This document shows positions 3,310 to 14,545 of a stretch of DNA of 19,329 nucleotides, one piece after another. This stretch comes from a virus (Duplodnaviria > Heunggongvirae > Uroviricota > Caudoviricetes), in the IMG/VR virus record IMGVR_UViG_2802429248_000011, positions 1 through 19,329 of that record. The stretch is one strand, 5' to 3'. The notes beneath the pieces are model-generated. The model did not search any database. It was given only the letters and a program-made list of their open reading frames with translations, and was not told the origin of the DNA. A program made the position numbers and the translations under genes. The stretch's first letter is position 1. Each line of letters begins with the position of its first letter.

Positions 3310-3590
3310 AATATTGTGGTGCTTTTTGTGAGAGTCATCCACTTACGCACTTTGTTTTGCTATGCCAGCAGTTAGCTTCTGCTGTAAAACTATTCATGCA
3401 GCAAACCTGCACTTCACCACAATGGTTAGCATACTTTTCCTGATTAAGTTATTACCAAATATGCTGGCCATTGTTTCATGTATTGGACCGCCTTACTCTT
3501 TATTAAAGAGATCCAATATTCACCACTCTGTCTGTATCTCCACTCAGGCATCAGCCTTCTTCGTTATCGTATACAGACAAACTATGAATT

Positions 3591-3806
3591 TTAATCATTA
3601 ATGATGACATTTGCTGCTGCAGGACCTTTAGCACCACTCTCTACAGAGAAGGTAACCTTTTGACCTTCAAATAAGGTTCGATAATTATCATTCTGAATCG
3701 CAGAAAAATGCACAAACACATCTTTACTACCATCAACAGGAGAAATAAAGCCGAAACCTTTATCAGCGTTAAACCATTTTACTAAACCAGTCATTTTATT
3801 TGACAT
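3591..3806 (-). CDS. cspB: Cold-shock protein, CspA family (CspB-like)
   Basis: 71 aa [67 protein letters not shown]...; canonical cold-shock-domain RNP motifs; long upstream untranslated region as in csp genes. Confidence 0.9.
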
Positions 3807-4105
3807 TCTACATTCCTTAACTTGAGCCTTTCGGCATAAATGGTTTGTATAACAGAAACGACTTCGTACTTAATTGGAGAGACTCAAAGAAGGAATAAGT
3901 GAATAACACCTGAAATGAGAACTGCTTTAGTAAACTACTTCGTATATCGTCTGTTCTTCAAACCGACGCAATCATTAACGCATAGTTGAACATATGAAGC
4001 AATGTTTATTTTAGACATCCAGCCATCTTCAACCCCATCAAAAAACTATAGCTTTCTTCAGGAACGTGTGTATAGTGCGCCAAGTTATCAGTATTAAGGA
4101 ATTTT

Positions 4106-7169: not shown

Positions 7170-8165
7170 TTACGCCAGCACGCCAATTGCCAGCGCACGA
7201 TCGATAAAACGAAATATCAGCTTCAGCTGGGAGCCATACTTCTCTTCAAATGCCACGGTATCCGCATGCAGCTCGTCGTGATGCTTTCTGCACAAAGGCA
7301 ACACAAAGAGGTCATGCGCTTTTGTAGCCATTCCACCCTGACCGTGGCCTATCAGGTGGTGGGGATCATCAGCAGGCTTTCCACAACATGCACACGGCTG
7401 TGTCTTAACCCAGCGCGTGTACTTTTCGTTAACCCAGCGGCGACGTTTGGGGCGTAACATAAAAGACTCCGGCGACTCCGGATCCACTTTCAGCGCCAGC
7501 ACCTTTTTCGCTTTATCCTGGATAATGCTGGTGGCAGGAACCGAAGGCACAAGGTCACTTTCCCGGGTGACAGACGGCACAACAGGCTTCGGTAATCTCA
7601 GTGCCTTACGGGCTGCACTTTCCGGTAAGGCATCCGCCAGGTCATTACGAATCAGCCACCAGCACAGTTCCGGCATTGTCACAACGTGACTATCATCAAA
7701 ACCGAGATCCCGACGCACAACAGACAACACCCAACGGGCACAGTTATCCGTTGCCATTGATTCCAGCCGTTCCGTGAACTGATCGCGCAGCTGGTTATCG
7801 CAGTGCCAGCACAGACGGATTGCGCCCGGGGCGTGTCGCATTGTGGTCATGTTCTCGCTGTGCCAGTCGGAATGAGGCCACTGGCAGCCCTTTTCACGAA
7901 GTAACCAGCTTTCAAGACATTCCACGCCACCAGCACGACGGATCACTGCCTCATTGCGGAACACGGCCCGAACGGCAGGATCATCCGCCAGCGGTTGTGA
8001 TGCCGCCGGAACGGCACCACTGGCGAAAGATGAATAACGCTCCGGCTCAGGCTCCAGCAGGACACGCCCCTGCATAAACAGGGGCATCAGCTCTGAACCT
8101 GGCCTGAACAATACGATCCCCATACGCGGGGCAATTTCAGGGGTCAGCAGTGCTCTCACGGTCAC
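7170..8165 (-). CDS. DUF968-like protein with C-terminal HNH/zinc-finger-like Cys/His motif; start codon uncertain
   Basis: 331-aa ORF. C-terminal ...TQPCACCGKPADDPHHLIGHGQGGMATKAHDLFVLPLCRKHHDELH... resembles the DUF968 family found just upstream of Q in E. coli lambdoid prophages (memory-based). Several candidate starts. Confidence 0.7.
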   Translation of the reverse strand: MTVRALLTPEIAPRMGIVLFRPGSELMPLFMQGRVLLEPEPERYSSFASGAVPAASQPLADDPAVRAVFRNEAVIRRAGGVECLESWLLREKGCQWPHSDWHSENMTTMRHAPGAIRLCWHCDNQLRDQFTERLESMATDNCARWVLSVVRRDLGFDDSHVVTMPELCWWLIRNDLADALPESAARKALRLPKPVVPSVTRESDLVPSVPATSIIQDKAKKVLALKVDPESPESFMLRPKRRRWVNEKYTRWVKTQPCACCGKPADDPHHLIGHGQGGMATKAHDLFVLPLCRKHHDELHADTVAFEEKYGSQLKLIFRFIDRALAIGVLA

Positions 8166-8211
8166 CTCAGCGAACGGTATTGCATGAACGCAGAAGAAAA
8201 AAATTCAGCCA

Positions 8212-8469
8212 TCACGCAGTAAACTCCTTCACCAGCGTTTCAAACTGGCTTACCTGGCCTTCCAGTTCCGCCACGCAATCCACCAGCTCATCCACCGCCT
8301 TTTGTGTGCGGTGTTTTGCCTGCAGCAGATCACGCAGCGCCGGAGTAAGCTGCTTGCAGAGCGTATCCTTTGCCACGCTCGTTTTTTCCATCTGTTCAGC
8401 ACAACGAAGCATCTCCTGTGCCTGCCGACGAAGTTGTTCCGGTGAAACAGTGGTTGTTCTGTTATTCAA
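8212..8469 (-). CDS. Hypothetical small coiled-coil protein (85 aa)
   Basis: ORF MNNRTTTVSPEQLRRQAQEMLRCAEQMEK... whose TTG start overlaps the DnaB-like stop (TTGA), suggesting translational coupling; no recognised family. Confidence 0.45.
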   Translation of the reverse strand: MNNRTTTVSPEQLRRQAQEMLRCAEQMEKTSVAKDTLCKQLTPALRDLLQAKHRTQKAVDELVDCVAELEGQVSQFETLVKEFTA

Positions 8470-9866
8470 AATAAACGCTCCGTTTTACTGCCCGACATGC
8501 GTTTATTGCTGTATCTGCGCGGATTGCCCGGAGTCATGGGTGTGGAAAGAACCCGGGCACTCTCCTGGTCCACAGGCAGAAAATGTCCGTTATAAAAACG
8601 CCGGTAAATCGTCCCCAGAGAACCGTTACGTTGTTTCGTGATATTGATTTCTGCGATGCCCCTGGCCTGCGTATCCGGGTTGTACACTTCATCCCTGTAA
8701 AGCATCAGAATGATGTCTGCATCCGCCTCTATTTCTCCGGAATTTTTCAGGTCCGAGTTCATGGGGCGTTTATTGGGTCTGGATTCCACGCCGCGGGAGA
8801 GCTGGCTAAGAGCAATCAGCGGAAAACCGCCGGATTTTGCCAGGCTTTTAAGTCCCTTTGAGATTTCCCCCACCGCAAGGTCGTGACGCCCCGTGCTGCG
8901 GGTTTTAATCAGGCCGAGGTAATCGACCACCACCAGCGCCGTTTCCGGGTGTTTCATCCGGTGGTGCTTCGTGGTTGCACATATCTCATCAATGGTCAGG
9001 TTTGCCTGGTCCACCATCCAGATATTACGCCCCGTCATTCGTCCCACGCCCTGCGAGAAACGCGCCCAGTCTTCATCTTCAAAACGGGCAACAGACTTAA
9101 GACGTGATACCGGCATTCCTCCAGCCGCAGACACCATACGTTCACCAATCTGGATGTTCGACATCTCCATGGTGAACAGAAGCACACCATGCCCCTGCTC
9201 AGTCACCTTGTCGATGATGTCCAGCGCAAGTTCGGTTTTCCCCATCGAAGGACGGGCGGCAATGAATACCAGGTCTCCGGGCTCCATACCGCCCGTTTTT
9301 GCGTCCAGTTCATCAATACCGGTCATCAGCGCCCTGGATTTCTCCAGTCCCTGATTGCGGCATTCAACACGGTCGACCACTTCCGGAAGGACATCATCAA
9401 TGTGAACCGGCTGAATGACGCCCTTTCCTGTCGACAGTGTGACCATCATGTTCTGCGCATCCTTCAGAGCATCCTCGGCTGCTTCACAGGTATGCGCATC
9501 ACGTAAATTCTGTAATGCTTCAGTCAGTGTTTTTTCTGCATCGCGCAGTGCGGCATTTCGCCGCAGCGCTGCAACATAGTGCTCCAGTGAAGACTTCACC
9601 CAGGTTTTACGCCCGGTGTCGGTAATCACCGGGGCAAGTTCCGGCATCTCATTGCACAGCAGCACGGGGTCAATGACGCCGGATACGCGAGCCTGTCTGC
9701 AAATCCCCGCGTAAATATCCCTGTACTGACGCACGAAAAAGACATCCGCCGGAAGCGTGGCCAGAATATCCATCACTTCCGGATCAGCCCCACGCAGAAA
9801 AAACGCGCCAATCACGGCACCTTCCAGGTCATCGTTACGCCATGCCGGATTTGTCGTTTTTGTCAT
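8466..9866 (-). CDS. Replicative DNA helicase, DnaB-like
   Basis: 466 aa from ATG 9866 (ATGA overlap with the upstream DnaC-like stop). Walker A ...FIAARPSMGKTELAL... and DnaB C-terminal RecA-like domain motifs. Confidence 0.9.
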   Translation of the reverse strand: MTKTTNPAWRNDDLEGAVIGAFFLRGADPEVMDILATLPADVFFVRQYRDIYAGICRQARVSGVIDPVLLCNEMPELAPVITDTGRKTWVKSSLEHYVAALRRNAALRDAEKTLTEALQNLRDAHTCEAAEDALKDAQNMMVTLSTGKGVIQPVHIDDVLPEVVDRVECRNQGLEKSRALMTGIDELDAKTGGMEPGDLVFIAARPSMGKTELALDIIDKVTEQGHGVLLFTMEMSNIQIGERMVSAAGGMPVSRLKSVARFEDEDWARFSQGVGRMTGRNIWMVDQANLTIDEICATTKHHRMKHPETALVVVDYLGLIKTRSTGRHDLAVGEISKGLKSLAKSGGFPLIALSQLSRGVESRPNKRPMNSDLKNSGEIEADADIILMLYRDEVYNPDTQARGIAEINITKQRNGSLGTIYRRFYNGHFLPVDQESARVLSTPMTPGNPRRYSNKRMSGSKTERLF

Positions 9867-10772: not shown

Positions 10773-11582
10773 TCACCAGTTGAAGTTCGTTGAACCGTAG
10801 TCCTGCTCACTGAATCCCGAGATCGGGAGGCCGGTAGTTCGCCCACCTCCGGGAGCGGCTGGCTGTTGCCAAGATTCCTCGAAGTGACGATCGGGTCCAA
10901 AGAACGTCGCAGCCTGCTTCACGAACTGTGTGCCGATATTTCCGGTAGCTCGTACCCAGGCGGCATACCGCTTCACGCCATCAAGCATGGTCTCCGGTTT
11001 TATTCCCTCCCTGATACGGGCTTTCCAGGCTTTGAAGGCTGCTGACTTGGAATTGCCACCGGCACGTTTGGGATATTCCTGCCAGGCCTGTTCAAATTCC
11101 GGTGAATATTCCTGTCGGGCAGAACGCGCTGGTGCAGACGCGTCAGCGGATGCGCCAATAGTTGATTCATTGACTGGTTCTTTGACTGGTTCAAAAGAGT
11201 GACTGGTTCTGGGTGAATCTCCTGCACTACCCCCTAGTGCAACTCCTGCACCACCTGGTGAATTTGTTGCACTAGGTAGTGAATTATTTGCACTACCACC
11301 TAGTGAATCTTTTGCACCATCAAGACGAAGAAGATAAATATTGCTCGAGTTGCCTTTTTCACCTTTCCGGGAAACTTTTTTTACCAGTCCCGATTCACAA
11401 AGAGCCGTAATATGATTCATCACAGAACGTTTGCTAATCTCGCACTGATCAGCAATATGCTGATAGCTGGGCCAGCACTCGCCCTGATCGCTGGCATTAT
11501 CAGCCAGCTTAATCAGAACCAGTTTTCGCAATGGATTCCCCACACGAATTTTCATCGCTTTAACCATCAGCTCCATGCTCAT
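10773..11582 (-). CDS. Replication initiator (lambda O-like; N-terminal winged-HTH, low-complexity linker, C-terminal domain)
   Basis: 269 aa. GGGAGG Shine-Dalgarno before ATG 11582. Direct repeats with internal dyad symmetry (iterons) lie in the linker-coding part of the gene, as in lambda O/ori. Confidence 0.8.
   Translation of the reverse strand: MSMELMVKAMKIRVGNPLRKLVLIKLADNASDQGECWPSYQHIADQCEISKRSVMNHITALCESGLVKKVSRKGEKGNSSNIYLLRLDGAKDSLGGSANNSLPSATNSPGGAGVALGGSAGDSPRTSHSFEPVKEPVNESTIGASADASAPARSARQEYSPEFEQAWQEYPKRAGGNSKSAAFKAWKARIREGIKPETMLDGVKRYAAWVRATGNIGTQFVKQAATFFGPDRHFEESWQQPAAPGGGRTTGLPISGFSEQDYGSTNFNW
11223..11310. repeat. Origin-of-replication iterons (four ~20-22 bp repeats with internal dyad symmetry) inside the initiator gene
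   Basis: TGCACTACCCCCTAGTGCAA / TGCACCACCTGGTGAATT / TGCACTAGGTAGTGAATT / TGCACTACCACCTAGTGAAT in tandem. Adjacent at 11165-11215 are three copies of TGACTGGTTC. Confidence 0.7.
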
Positions 11583-11803
11583 AGAGCACCTCCCAGGCGT
11601 TTAAACATTTTTCCGGACTGAAACGCCATCAACGGATAGCTAATGGTGTAGTTACGCCCCAGTAATTCACACACAACTTTCTGGCTTTCGGTGCTGACCA
11701 GGCAAACCCGCAGAACGTGACCGTTGCTGGTGGCGAACCACTGCCCCACACGGGGGCAACGGTTGTATCGGTGATACAGGGAATTAACGATGTAGCGGAT
11801 CAT
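11579..11803 (-). CDS. Hypothetical protein (74 aa)
   Basis: GGAGGTG Shine-Dalgarno; ATGA overlaps with both the upstream ORF and the initiator gene downstream; no recognised family. Confidence 0.55.
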   Translation of the reverse strand: MIRYIVNSLYHRYNRCPRVGQWFATSNGHVLRVCLVSTESQKVVCELLGRNYTISYPLMAFQSGKMFKRLGGAL

Positions 11804-11994
11804 GGACGCACCTCCGCCGTAGTTACGTATTTAACCGGGCTACCTTTCATTGAGATGGTTTCACACATCTCTGCCGCTTTCAGTTCCGCCGTTTTTCTGG
11901 ATTTATAGCGACGGTGCCAGACAGATACATCCGTGCGAACTGATACATCGTTTCTGTATTCCGTAGTGGAGATGATGATTTCGTAACTAATCAT
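11800..11994 (-). CDS. Hypothetical protein (64 aa)
   Basis: GGGAGG Shine-Dalgarno 7 nt before ATG 11994, which overlaps the upstream stop (ATGA); MISYEIIISTTEYRNDVSVRTDVSVWHRRYKSRKTAELKAAEM... Confidence 0.55.
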   Translation of the reverse strand: MISYEIIISTTEYRNDVSVRTDVSVWHRRYKSRKTAELKAAEMCETISMKGSPVKYVTTAEVRP

Positions 11995-12653
11995 GGGCGT
12001 ACCTCCCATTGATTACGGCGAAAAGCAGTGTGATTCAGGCTGGTTTCAGCCTCATGGAATGCTCCAATGCAGCTCTCGTAGTACCGCATTGTGCGTAGAC
12101 TTAACCCAAGCTGAAGCATCATCAGGCCATCAAGGGTGATGTAATAACCACGCAGGGAGTCACCATAGATGTGGTAAGTACCCGGTATGAAGTTGCGGGT
12201 AAAAAATTCGCGCGAGCAGTTCAGATACTCGATTTTGTCGACGATGTTCTGGTGCATGCGCTTAAAGTGGCAGGCAACATGCAGGGAGAAAATAACAGCT
12301 TTGCCGTTGACGACTTCGATTTTGAGGAATGGGGAAGTTGGGACTGTAGCCATGATGGCAGCCTCCTTGATCGGTGAAAAACTTCCACCACCGGAGCTGC
12401 GAAACTCATGGGTGGTGAACTGAACAGGGTTCGCAGTACCGGCGATCAAGGAAACCGGCGAGCCTTTCGGCTCCCCTGCCCAGCCCACCATAATTCTGGC
12501 GTGCGTGAGCGCAGACGATAAAAAAGACGCTGGCGCGTCGTATATCGCCTTGATCAATTCCGGGCTGCGACCCCCGGCACCCGCTTTATAAGGTGCTGGA
12601 ACAGTGTAACGTCCCGAAATTACAGAATCAATATTTTGGCTTGAAACATTCAT
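11991..12653 (-). CDS. Hypothetical protein with Gly/Ser/Pro/Ala-rich N-terminal region and folded C-terminal domain; start codon uncertain (open frame extends to 12887; strong internal Shine-Dalgarno + ATG at 12353)
   Basis: 897-nt open frame. The first in-frame ATG (12653) lacks a Shine-Dalgarno; an internal ATG at 12353 has AAGGAGG 8 nt upstream. C-terminal domain ...YYITLDGLMMLQLGLSLRTMRYYESCIGAF... is not confidently assignable. Confidence 0.5.
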   Translation of the reverse strand: MNVSSQNIDSVISGRYTVPAPYKAGAGGRSPELIKAIYDAPASFLSSALTHARIMVGWAGEPKGSPVSLIAGTANPVQFTTHEFRSSGGGSFSPIKEAAIMATVPTSPFLKIEVVNGKAVIFSLHVACHFKRMHQNIVDKIEYLNCSREFFTRNFIPGTYHIYGDSLRGYYITLDGLMMLQLGLSLRTMRYYESCIGAFHEAETSLNHTAFRRNQWEVRP

Positions 12654-12677
12654 ATGCTTACTGGTATTTTTACTAAC

Positions 12678-12767
12678 GCAAATGTTCTTGGATGTTACTG
12701 GCTTACTTCTTTGTGAGGTTGCCTTTACTAACGTTGAGCGAGCCGGGTCACTACCCGGCTTTTTTTC
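12678..12767 (+). ncRNA. Candidate oop-like antisense small RNA (about 90 nt)
   Basis: Promoter-like TTGAAA (12641-12646), 18-bp spacer, TG-extended -10 TGgTATTTT (12662-12670), and a strong plus-strand terminator ending at 12767. Antisense to the Rha-2 stop and the region upstream of the next gene. Confidence 0.3.
12741..12767 (+). terminator. Intrinsic terminator oriented against the pR-type operon (antisense terminator)
   Basis: Plus strand AGCCGGGT-CACT-ACCCGGCT followed by T7; on the minus strand the hairpin is preceded by A7 and has no U-tract. Confidence 0.6.
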
Positions 12768-13473
12768 ACCGCTGCCAACCAATAACCTGAAATAACCCCA
12801 TTTTCGGGTGATACCAGCGAGTCCCTCGCGGTTCTGCTTCCGCCATAACCTGATGGAAAGCAGCCATAAACGGTTCCACGGCAACAATTGCGCGACGTGA
12901 CAACAATCCGTCCGGCGTCATGAACTCATGGGTGTCTGTAGGAATTTGATAAGCGTTCACCAGATTGCGGCATTTATCATCTGACAAACCGGTTTTCGCT
13001 TTCAGTTGGCGATATCCGGCATAGCCCTCACGAATGTTGCCCTTTTTGATTTGCTCAACTGTTTCGGCAACGTGGCTGACTTTTTCTTCCACCTGAGTGA
13101 TCCGTTTCTGCTGACGAACAGCTTCAAGAGCCATCGCGGCAACCATTTCGATTTCGCTCATTGGCTTACGGATCTGTTCTTCCAGTTCGCGCCAGCGATC
13201 TACTAGGCGGGCTGTGAATTCGGGACAAAGCTGTGCGACGACAATGATGCTGTCGCGCTTACCTTGTTCGCCTTCGAAGATGTAAGCACCTACATTTCGT
13301 TTTAATCCTAAGTTGTTGATTATTTCGAAATTCGCCATTGGCGCACTTCGAATAATCCCCTTATCCATGAGCCTTTCAATGCTGCGCTTAACATCTTTGT
13401 GTTGGCTGCCCACCAACTCTGCGATTTCAAGGCTGGTCATGGATGCTTTGCCGTTAAAAATTGCGGTGTTCAT
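12766..13473 (-). CDS. Rha-family phage regulatory protein (antirepressor-like)
   Basis: 235 aa. N-terminal ...MTSLEIAELVGSQHKDVKRSIERLMDKG... fits the Rha domain pattern; its ATG overlaps the cro-like stop (ATGA). Confidence 0.78.
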   Translation of the reverse strand: MNTAIFNGKASMTSLEIAELVGSQHKDVKRSIERLMDKGIIRSAPMANFEIINNLGLKRNVGAYIFEGEQGKRDSIIVVAQLCPEFTARLVDRWRELEEQIRKPMSEIEMVAAMALEAVRQQKRITQVEEKVSHVAETVEQIKKGNIREGYAGYRQLKAKTGLSDDKCRNLVNAYQIPTDTHEFMTPDGLLSRRAIVAVEPFMAAFHQVMAEAEPRGTRWYHPKMGLFQVIGWQR

Positions 13474-13852: not shown

Positions 13853-14545
13853 ATGACATTTTCAGAACGACTTGATTTAGCTATGCGCAACGCAAAATTT
13901 ACGCAAGGTAGGCTGGCCAAAGAAGTGGGTATGGCTCAGTCCAGTGTCAATCAACTACTTAACAAAGCCAACGGTTCCAGAAAAACAGTCGAAATAGCAA
14001 AAGTTTTGGGCGTTAACCCGGAATGGCTCGCATCGGGTGTTGGCCCAATGGAAATCGTGACCTCTGCAGACTCACACCAAATACGTAACATTTCTGAAGA
14101 TTGGGTTACTGATTCGTATGTCGTGGATGTTTTAGACATCAGATATAGTTGCGGACCTGGCAGTTATAACTCTGATTTTCCTGACATTGTCAGATCTATA
14201 GCGATAGAACCAGGATACGCATCAAGAGTTTTTGGCGGCAGACCAGCATCAGCAATCAAAGCAATAAACGCCCACGGCGACAGTATGAAAGGCACAATAG
14301 ACCCTGAAGACTTGGTATTTGTAGATGTATCAGTTCGCACATTTAATGGTGATGGTATATACGCCTTTACATACTCTGGAACATCGCACATCAAAAGACT
14401 TCAAAAAATCAAAGATACTCTAACGGTGATATCTGACAACCCAGCTTACAAGGATTGGGCTATCGAACCGGAAGACTTTGAACAACTTCACATTGACGGA
14501 AAAGTAATTGTCAGTTGGCCTATGACACTACACCGTTTTGCATAA
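13853..14545 (+). CDS. cI: CI-type prophage repressor (N-terminal HTH, C-terminal LexA-like S24 autopeptidase domain)
   Basis: 230 aa. N-terminal HTH (..QGRLAKEVGMAQSSVNQLL..) and C-terminal S24 motifs (..HGDSMKGTIDPEDLVFVD.. and ..IKRLQK..). GGAGG Shine-Dalgarno; divergent from cro. Confidence 0.9.
   Translation: MTFSERLDLAMRNAKFTQGRLAKEVGMAQSSVNQLLNKANGSRKTVEIAKVLGVNPEWLASGVGPMEIVTSADSHQIRNISEDWVTDSYVVDVLDIRYSCGPGSYNSDFPDIVRSIAIEPGYASRVFGGRPASAIKAINAHGDSMKGTIDPEDLVFVDVSVRTFNGDGIYAFTYSGTSHIKRLQKIKDTLTVISDNPAYKDWAIEPEDFEQLHIDGKVIVSWPMTLHRFA

Follow-up and report, generated by a model that had tools for sequence, protein, structure and literature searches.

A long open reading frame running through a putative IsrK–C4-type RNA immunity module in a lambdoid prophage

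The window analysed here is a stretch of 19,329 nucleotides (nt) of the tailed-virus record IMGVR_UViG_2802429248_000011 (Caudoviricetes), and the question it raises concerns a single minus-strand reading frame. Read back from its terminal TGA (11993-11991), this frame is free of stops for 924 nt, to the TGA at 12920-12918. The first start-type codon in it is TTG 12887, which gives an open reading frame (ORF) of 897 nt including the stop and, in the output of the ORF lister, a product of 298 amino acids. The original prediction had drawn attention to this 897-nt minus-strand frame (TTG 12887 to the stop at 11991) and to its overlap, in a different frame, with the last 122 nt of the upstream gene Rha-2 (12766-13473); the ORF coordinates agree with both statements. 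It was also right about the biased composition (residues 1-93 are rich in S, L, R and K, and residues 94-178 in A, G, S and P), about the near-perfect Shine-Dalgarno sequence of the internal ATG 12353 (AAGGAGG at 12368-12362, with a spacer of 8 nt), and about its lack at ATG 12653, which is preceded by GTAAAAATACCAGTAAGCAT. It erred in taking ATG 12653 for the sole upstream in-frame ATG, for ATG 12491 is likewise in frame. Three options had been put forward: a short protein of 120 amino acids behind a non-coding leader, a longer protein made from a weak or leaderless start, or a product of recoding. What does the frame specify, and why is it open?

Our answer, to which we assign a probability of about 0.78, is that the region is an IsrK(seqA)–C4(CI)-type RNA immunity or antirepressor-control module, which belongs to the early rightward operon of a Stx-phage-like lambdoid prophage and immediately precedes the genes for replication. 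The long frame would then be a nested-gene arrangement like eta/kil of P4, in which the selected trait is translatability and not the peptide sequence. The RNAs, the pairing logic and the idea of nested ORFs have all been published already, and this is not a new kind of system.

Regulatory RNAs and target sites within the frame

The Rfam scan finds two regulatory RNAs inside the long frame, in the order isrK and C4 (coordinates of these and all other features are collected in Table 1). The isrK match (RF01394) has 57.6 bits (gathering score 50), and the C4 match (RF01695) reaches 85 bits (gathering score 45) over the full-length model (1-87). IsrK folds into three hairpins, the last of which is an intrinsic terminator in the terminator scan (stem 12539-12526, U6 at 12525-12520). 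C4 folded alone adopts the family consensus, a long basal stem with two hairpins, at -46.6 kcal/mol (z -5.3). A third Rfam model, c4-a1b1 (RF03163), has no match in the window at E<=1; it overlaps the isrK matches in P4, Gifsy-1 and other loci.

For comparison 119 viral contigs (IMG/VR loci) were retrieved with a frame-blind DNA pattern for C4 hairpin 2 and reduced to 87 unique loci; offsets such as +106, -32 and -194 are counted relative to this hairpin. Compensatory changes occur at 16 of the 28 consensus pairs of C4 (46 sequences), the stem of hairpin 2 being uninformative for covariation as it was fixed by the retrieval pattern.

The sequences by which such RNAs recognize their targets are present in the window. 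In C4 the loop of hairpin 2 holds b' (UCCUUGAUCG, 12452-12443), and a single-stranded stretch holds a' (CUGCGAA, 12436-12430). Their exact complements follow downstream: a2 (TTCGCAG, 12403-12397) matches a' over 7 nt, and b2 (CGATCAAGGA, 12373-12364) matches b' over 10 nt and covers most of the Shine-Dalgarno sequence of ATG 12353. The copies of these targets in IsrK are weaker or shorter. There a1 (TCGCAG, 12570-12565; 6 nt) occupies the loop of hairpin 2 and b1 (GATCAAGG, 12555-12548; 8 nt) a single-stranded linker.

The 87 loci carry 31 variants of b' and 19 of a', and the target sites change in step with them. The mean longest complement between cognate partners is 8.4 nt for b2, 7.0 nt for a2, 6.7 nt for b1 and 4.4 nt for a1, against 5.2, 3.6, 4.2 and 2.8 nt, respectively, for non-cognate ones. 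The whole leader (12596-12340) folds at z -4.6. In its minimum-energy fold a1/b1 of IsrK pair with a'/b' of C4, and in the centroid fold a'/b' pair with a2/b2; these two predicted folds are the mutually exclusive pairings expected of such a switch. As a separate observation, the a' and b' variants are reassorted among the loci, which suggests recombinational exchange of immunity specificity.

A putative constitutive promoter of the sigma-70 type, P_isrK, can be read just upstream of isrK. It consists of a -35 hexamer TTGATT (12631-12626), a 17-nt spacer and a -10 hexamer TACACT (12608-12603), so that transcription of the module would start at G12596, judging from the 5' end of the Rfam isrK match. 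With 8 of 12 consensus matches it falls under the cut-off of the consensus promoter scan. The hexamers are invariant in 13 of 16 aligned lambdoid loci, and four of these 13 have unrelated upstream flanks; since the hexamers stay constant where the flanks are unrelated, the homology of the module begins at the -35 hexamer.

Protein-level constraint and the Ash label

The original prediction had proposed that homologues be aligned to see where conservation begins, and that a beginning at the equivalent of 12353 would make the upstream frame incidental. We compared all sequence pairs, codon by codon, in the three frames over the 68 loci that are open through the leader. In the leader, taken from the start of isrK up to the internal ATG, the synonymous fraction is 0.31 for the ORF frame and 0.27 and 0.29 for the other two, and third positions show no excess. 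In the first 64 codons behind that ATG the corresponding values are 0.57 for the ORF frame and 0.22 and 0.20 for the others, and the third-position excess is clear. Only the 120-amino acid part of the long frame evolves like a protein, and this constraint starts at the equivalent of 12353; conservation of the protein type is absent upstream. The first half of the proposal is thus essentially borne out, and the second is not, the upstream frame being kept open far above controls as described below. Likewise, the short protein behind a non-coding leader is the best supported of the three options, with the correction that the leader consists of isrK and C4 and is not merely non-coding.

The 120-amino acid protein is Rha-like. 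It scores 27.8 bits with Pfam Phage_pRha (PF09669; gathering score 29.9) and 39.1 bits with TIGR02681 (cut-off 45.95), and matches PHROG 995 (3e-57) and PHROG 518, annotated as 'Rha-like' (4e-14). The precomputed Pfam assignment of close homologues includes PF09669, and the exact 120-amino acid product is predicted by some gene callers. A homologue search with this protein returned close E. coli relatives only, which made a deeper protein alignment impossible.

The public databases treat the segment ahead of this gene as protein too. Pfam Phage_ASH (PF10554) matches residues 94-185 (nt 12608-12333) with 66.4 bits against a gathering score of 26, six PHROG families include the Ash segment, and RefSeq names the 220-amino acid ORF from the equivalent of ATG 12653, including counterparts in E. 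coli that are 95% identical, 'ash family protein'. GenBank records of phages label the segment 'putative antirepressor' or 'hypothetical protein', and both regulatory RNAs are unannotated in the three close-relative records inspected. No NCBIfam model fits the leader translation. In the literature on Stx phages the Ash domain is listed without known function, and 'Rha/Ash' proteins are mentioned (PMC8951638).

These labels, together with a frame that is open in most loci and the translation of P4 Eta reported in PMC10111431, are what could be said for a genuine two-domain protein, an N-terminal Ash domain fused to Rha, in which the RNA matches would be secondary or the region dual-coding. We regard this as very unlikely. 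The segment matched by Phage_ASH is the leader made up of isrK, C4 and a2/b2, which lacks the synonymous excess and third-position bias of the gene that follows, and thus shows no purifying selection of the protein type. The limits of the Pfam match fall at the predicted start of transcription and at the internal start codon. The variable 'residues' of the protein alignment co-vary as blocks that correspond to the RNA sites a', b', a2 and b2: SLI goes with SPIK, SVC with PLHT and SDN with SLLS, and these paired blocks are the predicted b'/b2 complementarity seen through translation. Some loci, moreover, hold the long frame open in another phase relative to C4 hairpin 2, and in Gifsy-1 the nucleotide sequence of orf45, the short ORF at the corresponding place, is conserved and its amino-acid sequence variable (PMC4825925). 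Structure prediction of the 220-amino acid ORF (AlphaFold, 32-sequence alignment) gave a mean predicted local distance difference test score (pLDDT) of 35, with about 25-30 for residues 1-100 and 45-59 for residues 150-180, which is weak evidence given the shallow alignment. A sequence search of the PDB found nothing meaningful, the sole match being amicyanin at E 0.39.

The case of P4 bears on the label itself. There PF10554 matches the obsolete 'cI protein' ORF (8168-8584), which lies over the CI RNA, and not epsilon (7888-8175), the Ash protein, which matches PF25738. The position of the P4 match over the CI RNA and the lack of protein-type constraint in the leader indicate that PF10554 mainly captures conservation at the RNA level, read in a single frame. 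The family has been used as an epsilon profile for the detection of P4-like satellites (PMC8628076); what it picked up there was probably the region of the CI RNA and not epsilon.

The open frame, its starts and its setting

If the leader is not constrained as protein, its openness needs another account. Openness was measured in the 87 unique loci on the 243 nt between the start of isrK and the internal ATG. The ORF frame is free of stops in 68 of them and the other two sense frames in 9 and 2; mean stop numbers are 0.45 in the ORF frame and 2.2-2.9 in the others. Some sense frame is open in 76/87 loci against 13/87 for any antisense frame, with a shuffle null of 0.18. Grouping of the loci at 85% identity gives 37 groups, of which 22 have the ORF frame open, 29 at least one sense frame and 7 at least one antisense frame. 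Between the C4 AUG and the internal ATG (-32..+106) the frame is open in 78/87 loci. Of 86 loci, 62 have the downstream start in this frame, as do 20 of 33 groups (p = 0.001 for an expectation of one third), and its distance from C4 varies mostly by multiples of 3 nt (97, 100, 103, 106, 109). Judged from this comparison of sequences, the open frame through the RNAs is not accidental, and it is usually in frame with the downstream gene.

It is unlikely, then, that the frame is incidental, that is, that the leader is purely non-coding, only the 120-amino acid protein is made, and stops are lacking by virtue of G+C-rich stems and shared ancestry. The absence of amino-acid-level constraint in the leader and of a Shine-Dalgarno sequence at both 12653 and 12491 would fit such an account, as would the interruption of the frame in about one-fifth of the loci and the stops that close the part from 12917 to 12654 in the nearest relatives. 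The antisense strand, however, has equal composition and stems and is far less often open; the excess of stops in the other sense frames and the 3-nt steps in spacing from the C4 AUG to the downstream start also speak against it, and of the four loci with flanks unrelated to those of the window, three have an in-frame ATG shortly before the promoter. Translation across the RNA has in addition been shown for Gifsy-1 orf45 (PMC4825925) and for P4 eta (PMC10111431).

The part of the frame from 12917 to 12654 is a different matter and appears to be an incidental extension, closed in the nearest relatives: the four closest (L001, L002, L095 and L029) have a stop in frame at about the equivalent of 12701. 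This bears on the remaining option, that recoding or an unconventional start (TTG 12887 or 12782, or a frameshift from Rha-2) yields a fusion linked to Rha-2. The overlap with the last 122 nt of Rha-2 and the openness from 12917 had suggested it, and we give it almost no credence. In the four relatives just named, and also in L046, L113 and L018, the frame is interrupted by a stop between the end of Rha-2 and the 12653 equivalent. The phase is shifted by a 1-nt insertion or deletion in the hairpin that follows Rha-2, and in other loci the genes upstream are unrelated. No slippery or other recoding signal was noticed in the overlap, in which no dedicated search was made. Nothing points to recoding, and the Rha-2 fusion was rejected on account of the in-frame stops of the nearest relatives.

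Two in-frame ATGs upstream of the internal one are left as candidate starts. ATG 12653 is usable only on transcripts begun upstream, at the early rightward promoter and extending through Rha-2. It has an equivalent (at -194 or -191) in 12 of the 16 aligned lambdoid loci, three of them with unrelated upstream flanks; in the remaining four the nearest in-frame ATG lies farther upstream. ATG 12491 is in frame with ATG 12353 with no intervening stop, and its equivalent, at -32, is present in nearly all loci. On alignment it is the homologue of the first AUG of Gifsy-1 orf45.

From these elements, and by analogy with the characterized systems compared below, the following scheme can be drawn for the IsrK–C4-type module. 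In the lysogen the internal promoter would make IsrK and then, through read-through and processing, C4. C4 would pair with a2/b2 and block the entry of ribosomes at 12353, and the untranslated RNA would terminate early, so that the genes coupled by ATGA overlaps, including the O-like and DnaC-like replication genes, would be silenced. An excess of IsrK would titrate a'/b' and switch translation on. On transcripts begun upstream, ribosomes from ATG 12653 could read IsrK and C4 in frame into the Rha-like gene; on read-through transcripts the orf45-like ATG 12491 could serve as an alternative start. In either case the passage of ribosomes would melt the RNA pairings and prevent termination.

Several points weigh against this interpretation. 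The transcription start, the processing of C4, Rho-dependent termination and every translation start are inferred. ATG 12653, besides having no Shine-Dalgarno sequence, lies 113 nt past the Rha-2 stop, so that coupling of the P4 eta type is not reproduced, and ATG 12491, which also has none, is placed within the basal stem of C4. In about one-fifth of the loci, which include Gifsy-1, the frame ends at or before the downstream start, and read-through translation is therefore not obligatory for the module. The compared loci share descent and per-locus counts over-state their independence, the grouping at 85% identity giving results in the same direction. Lastly, the 120-amino acid protein is just under the curated thresholds for Rha, and its role as antirepressor or regulator is putative.

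The cassette is found with varied cargo genes. In loci L004-L122, at +85 to +1216, these encode Kil-like 65-amino acid proteins, Rha, Bro-N, ORF6N, a protein with a Tad2-like (Thoeris anti-defence) domain and several small proteins without a family. In L004 and L054 the open frame extends for more than 1.1 kb, and in L054 it enters a gene of the integrase family. Loci of the L016 type had been considered as examples of Gifsy-1 and were rejected as such; the gene behind their cassette is Tad2-like, with the stop 5 nt inside it. Some relatives (L085, 8047-8598; L012, 3165-3716) have two tandem isrK–C4 cassettes in one open frame, split by a short N-terminal fragment of a Rha-like gene, and these give rise to the 341-343-amino acid 'ash family proteins' of the homologue list. 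PhiP27 appears to carry an insertion at the position of the cassette.

A wider proposal, which we put forward tentatively and consider somewhat less probable than its negation, is that the 'Ash domain' (PF10554, the RefSeq name and several PHROGs) is the conceptual translation of a mobile IsrK–C4 cassette, and that selection keeps this cassette stop-free and in frame with any cargo (Rha, Bro-N, ORF6N, Kil or others) so that ribosomes from upstream can override the RNA immunity, which would generalise P4 eta. If this is true, the cassette is a second, RNA-based gate on entry into the replication genes of Stx-type lambdoid phages.

Table 1. Features of the module and its neighbours, in window coordinates
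Feature	Position	Strand	Remarks
Rha-2 (Rha/Ant-like, 235 amino acids)	12766..13473	-	upstream gene, left flank of the module
Long open frame	11991..12917	-	12917-12654, extension; 12653-12354, RNA leader ('Ash' part); 12353-11991, protein domain
In-frame ATG	12651..12653	-	22 nt upstream of the -35 hexamer; start of the 220-amino acid ORF
Putative constitutive promoter P_isrK	12603..12631	-	read from the sequence; sigma-70-type
IsrK-type small RNA (= seqA, a1/b1 element)	12520..12596	-	Rfam RF01394, 77 nt
In-frame ATG	12489..12491	-	5' end of C4, nt 106 of the predicted transcript; a start here would give a 166-amino acid product
C4/CI-type antisense RNA	12408..12495	-	Rfam RF01695, 88 nt
mRNA target region	12362..12403	-	a2 and b2, exact reverse complements of a' and b'
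120-amino acid Rha-like protein gene	11991..12353	-	Shine-Dalgarno AAGGAGG; protein-level constraint
Downstream gene block	10773..11994	-	chained by ATGA stop/start overlaps
64-amino acid gene	11994-11800	-	PHROG 7046
74-amino acid gene	11803-11579	-	PHROG 1153
O-like replication initiator	11582-10773	-	HTH_36 and DnaD_N matches
DnaC-like gene	10753-9863	-	downstream of the O-like gene

Upstream of the module are a divergent gene at 13853-14545 for a repressor of the S24 type, a cro-like gene and Rha-2, which matches Pfam Phage_pRha with 34.3 bits and also PHROG 63 (anti-repressor Ant). Downstream, three ATGA overlaps link the 120-amino acid gene to the 64- and 74-amino acid genes and these to the O-like initiator. 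The start that the ORF lister gives for the 64-amino acid gene, ATG 12009, is probably wrong, GGGAGG with ATG 11994 fitting the PHROG alignment. The module thus stands where the original prediction had put it, at the position of cII in lambda, between the cro-like gene with Rha-2 and the O-like and DnaC-like genes. A cII-like function was considered and rejected: scans of Pfam, NCBIfam and PHROG gave no match to a cII-type family, and the likeness is one of position only. PADLOC found no defence system for the ORF or its neighbours, except for a weak match to Rha-2.

The module occurs in 378 phage records, mostly of Stx phages. Of 5,426 complete E. coli genomes, 652 contain the 1-kb region around it; over this region the best identity of the window to any E. 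coli record is 95%.

Some features of the plus strand in this part of the window may be recorded. A strong intrinsic terminator (stem 12740-12761, then T7) lies directly after the Rha-2 stop and antisense to the operon. It is preceded, about 70 nt upstream, by a promoter-like site at 12641-12670 that stands back to back with P_isrK (TTGAAA, 18-nt spacer, TATTTT, extended -10 TG). A transcript from this site to the terminator would measure about 90 nt and be antisense both to the region just upstream of ATG 12653 and to the 3' end of Rha-2. The hairpin, TTGAAA and TGnTAT are kept in a diverged subgroup (ASU11/Stx2 type) in which the intervening sequence differs; the predicted RNA folds at z -3.5 in the window and -2.1 in L002 and has no Rfam match. 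Elsewhere in the window, at 3526-3967 on the minus strand, there is a full-length match (157.9 bits) to the cspA 5' untranslated region thermoregulator (RF01766), which covers a 71-amino acid ORF (3591-3806), apparently a cold-shock protein gene that the prophage carries together with its RNA thermosensor.

A consequence of these results for annotation is that public records label an RNA-leader segment as protein. With its place directly ahead of the replication genes and with a'/b' variants that define immunity types, the cassette is a plausible second layer of control over induction, replication and hence toxin output in a Stx-phage-like prophage. The excess of open frames is also a fairly clean case in which translatability is selected and the peptide is not.

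Comparison with known systems

In the immI region of phages P1 and P7 (c4–icd–ant) the elements a' and b' lie in the RNA, a1/b1 upstream of it and a2/b2 downstream, b2 being placed over the ribosome-binding site. A gene of the antirepressor class is controlled in P1 through blocked translation of the first ORF, icd, with ant farther on. The order c4 antisense RNA, icd, ant is reportedly that of both phages. The likeness of the window to immI is one of shared logic, drawn from the published mechanism; a1/b1 are matched by RF03163 together with isrK in several loci.

P4 (NC_001609) resembles the window in its sequences as well as in its layout. Its isrK and C4 matches score 60.8 and 74.9 bits and are ordered as in the window, the frame through the RNAs is open in the same way, and the long frame starts upstream of the internal promoter. 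A short gene, kil, is nested at +106 from C4 hairpin 2, just as ATG 12353 is, with its Shine-Dalgarno sequence in the b2/seqC site, and replication genes follow downstream. The in-frame ATGs of P4 predict products of 199, 198 or 197 and of 65 amino acids, which we take to be Eta and Kil; products of these sizes have reportedly been described. The immunity region of P4 is said to be arranged as PLE – seqA – CI RNA – seqC with eta and kil nested.

IsrK corresponds to seqA and C4 to the CI RNA, and IsrK–C4 systems occur in lambdoid prophages of Salmonella (PMC3632133). According to PMC10111431, which summarises Forti et al. 1999, the CI RNA of P4 is encoded within eta. Read-through allows a truncated form, Kil, to be translated; full-length Eta comes only from an upstream promoter, and its translation prevents termination. 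The Rfam C4 and isrK profiles are noted there to pick up relatives of CI and seqA.

The window differs from P4 in several respects. The cargo of P4 is the 65-amino acid Kil, and that of the window a Rha-like protein of 120 amino acids; the nested protein of the window has no homology to Kil, which has no Pfam match and a different sequence. The spacer from isrK to C4 is about 84 nt shorter in the window. The ATG of its long frame does not overlap an upstream stop, so that there is no obvious translational coupling, and the host element is a lambdoid prophage that has a protein CI/Cro switch too.

Gifsy-1 (NC_010392) supplies the third comparison. Its isrK is at 34316-34240 and its C4 at 34214-34131 (69 bits); this C4-type RNA is probably STnc1160 of PMC4825925. 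As in the window, IsrK with its promoter and terminator is followed by the C4-type RNA, and the predicted pairing in cis of the middle of IsrK with the C4 region ('structure A') recurs in the fold of the window. The AUG of orf45 is the AUG at the 5' end of C4, at nt 107 against nt 106 in the window, the frame is shared, and the peptides are similar (IMVGRMGEPKGSPV in Gifsy-1 orf45, IMVGWAGEPKGSPV in the window). The orf45 sequence is translated, and expression of anrP needs this translation (PMC4825925, Hershko-Shalev et al. 2016). IsrK activates translation in trans, and Hfq binding and trans-activation of the read-through mRNA have been reported (PMC4825925).

There are differences here as well. 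A stop two codons ahead of the AUG closes the frame in Gifsy-1, and orf45 ends on the start of anrP (AUGA), which is in another frame, whereas the frame of the window is open far upstream and runs in frame into the downstream gene. An orf45-type stop overlapping the downstream start is not present in the window, in which the frame continues into the 120-amino acid gene. The Gifsy-1 module comes after the Q antiterminator gene, and that of the window is at the position of cII, ahead of genes of the O/P type; the downstream proteins are unlike each other. The window therefore combines the nested geometry of P4 with a lambdoid context and a Rha-like cargo gene.

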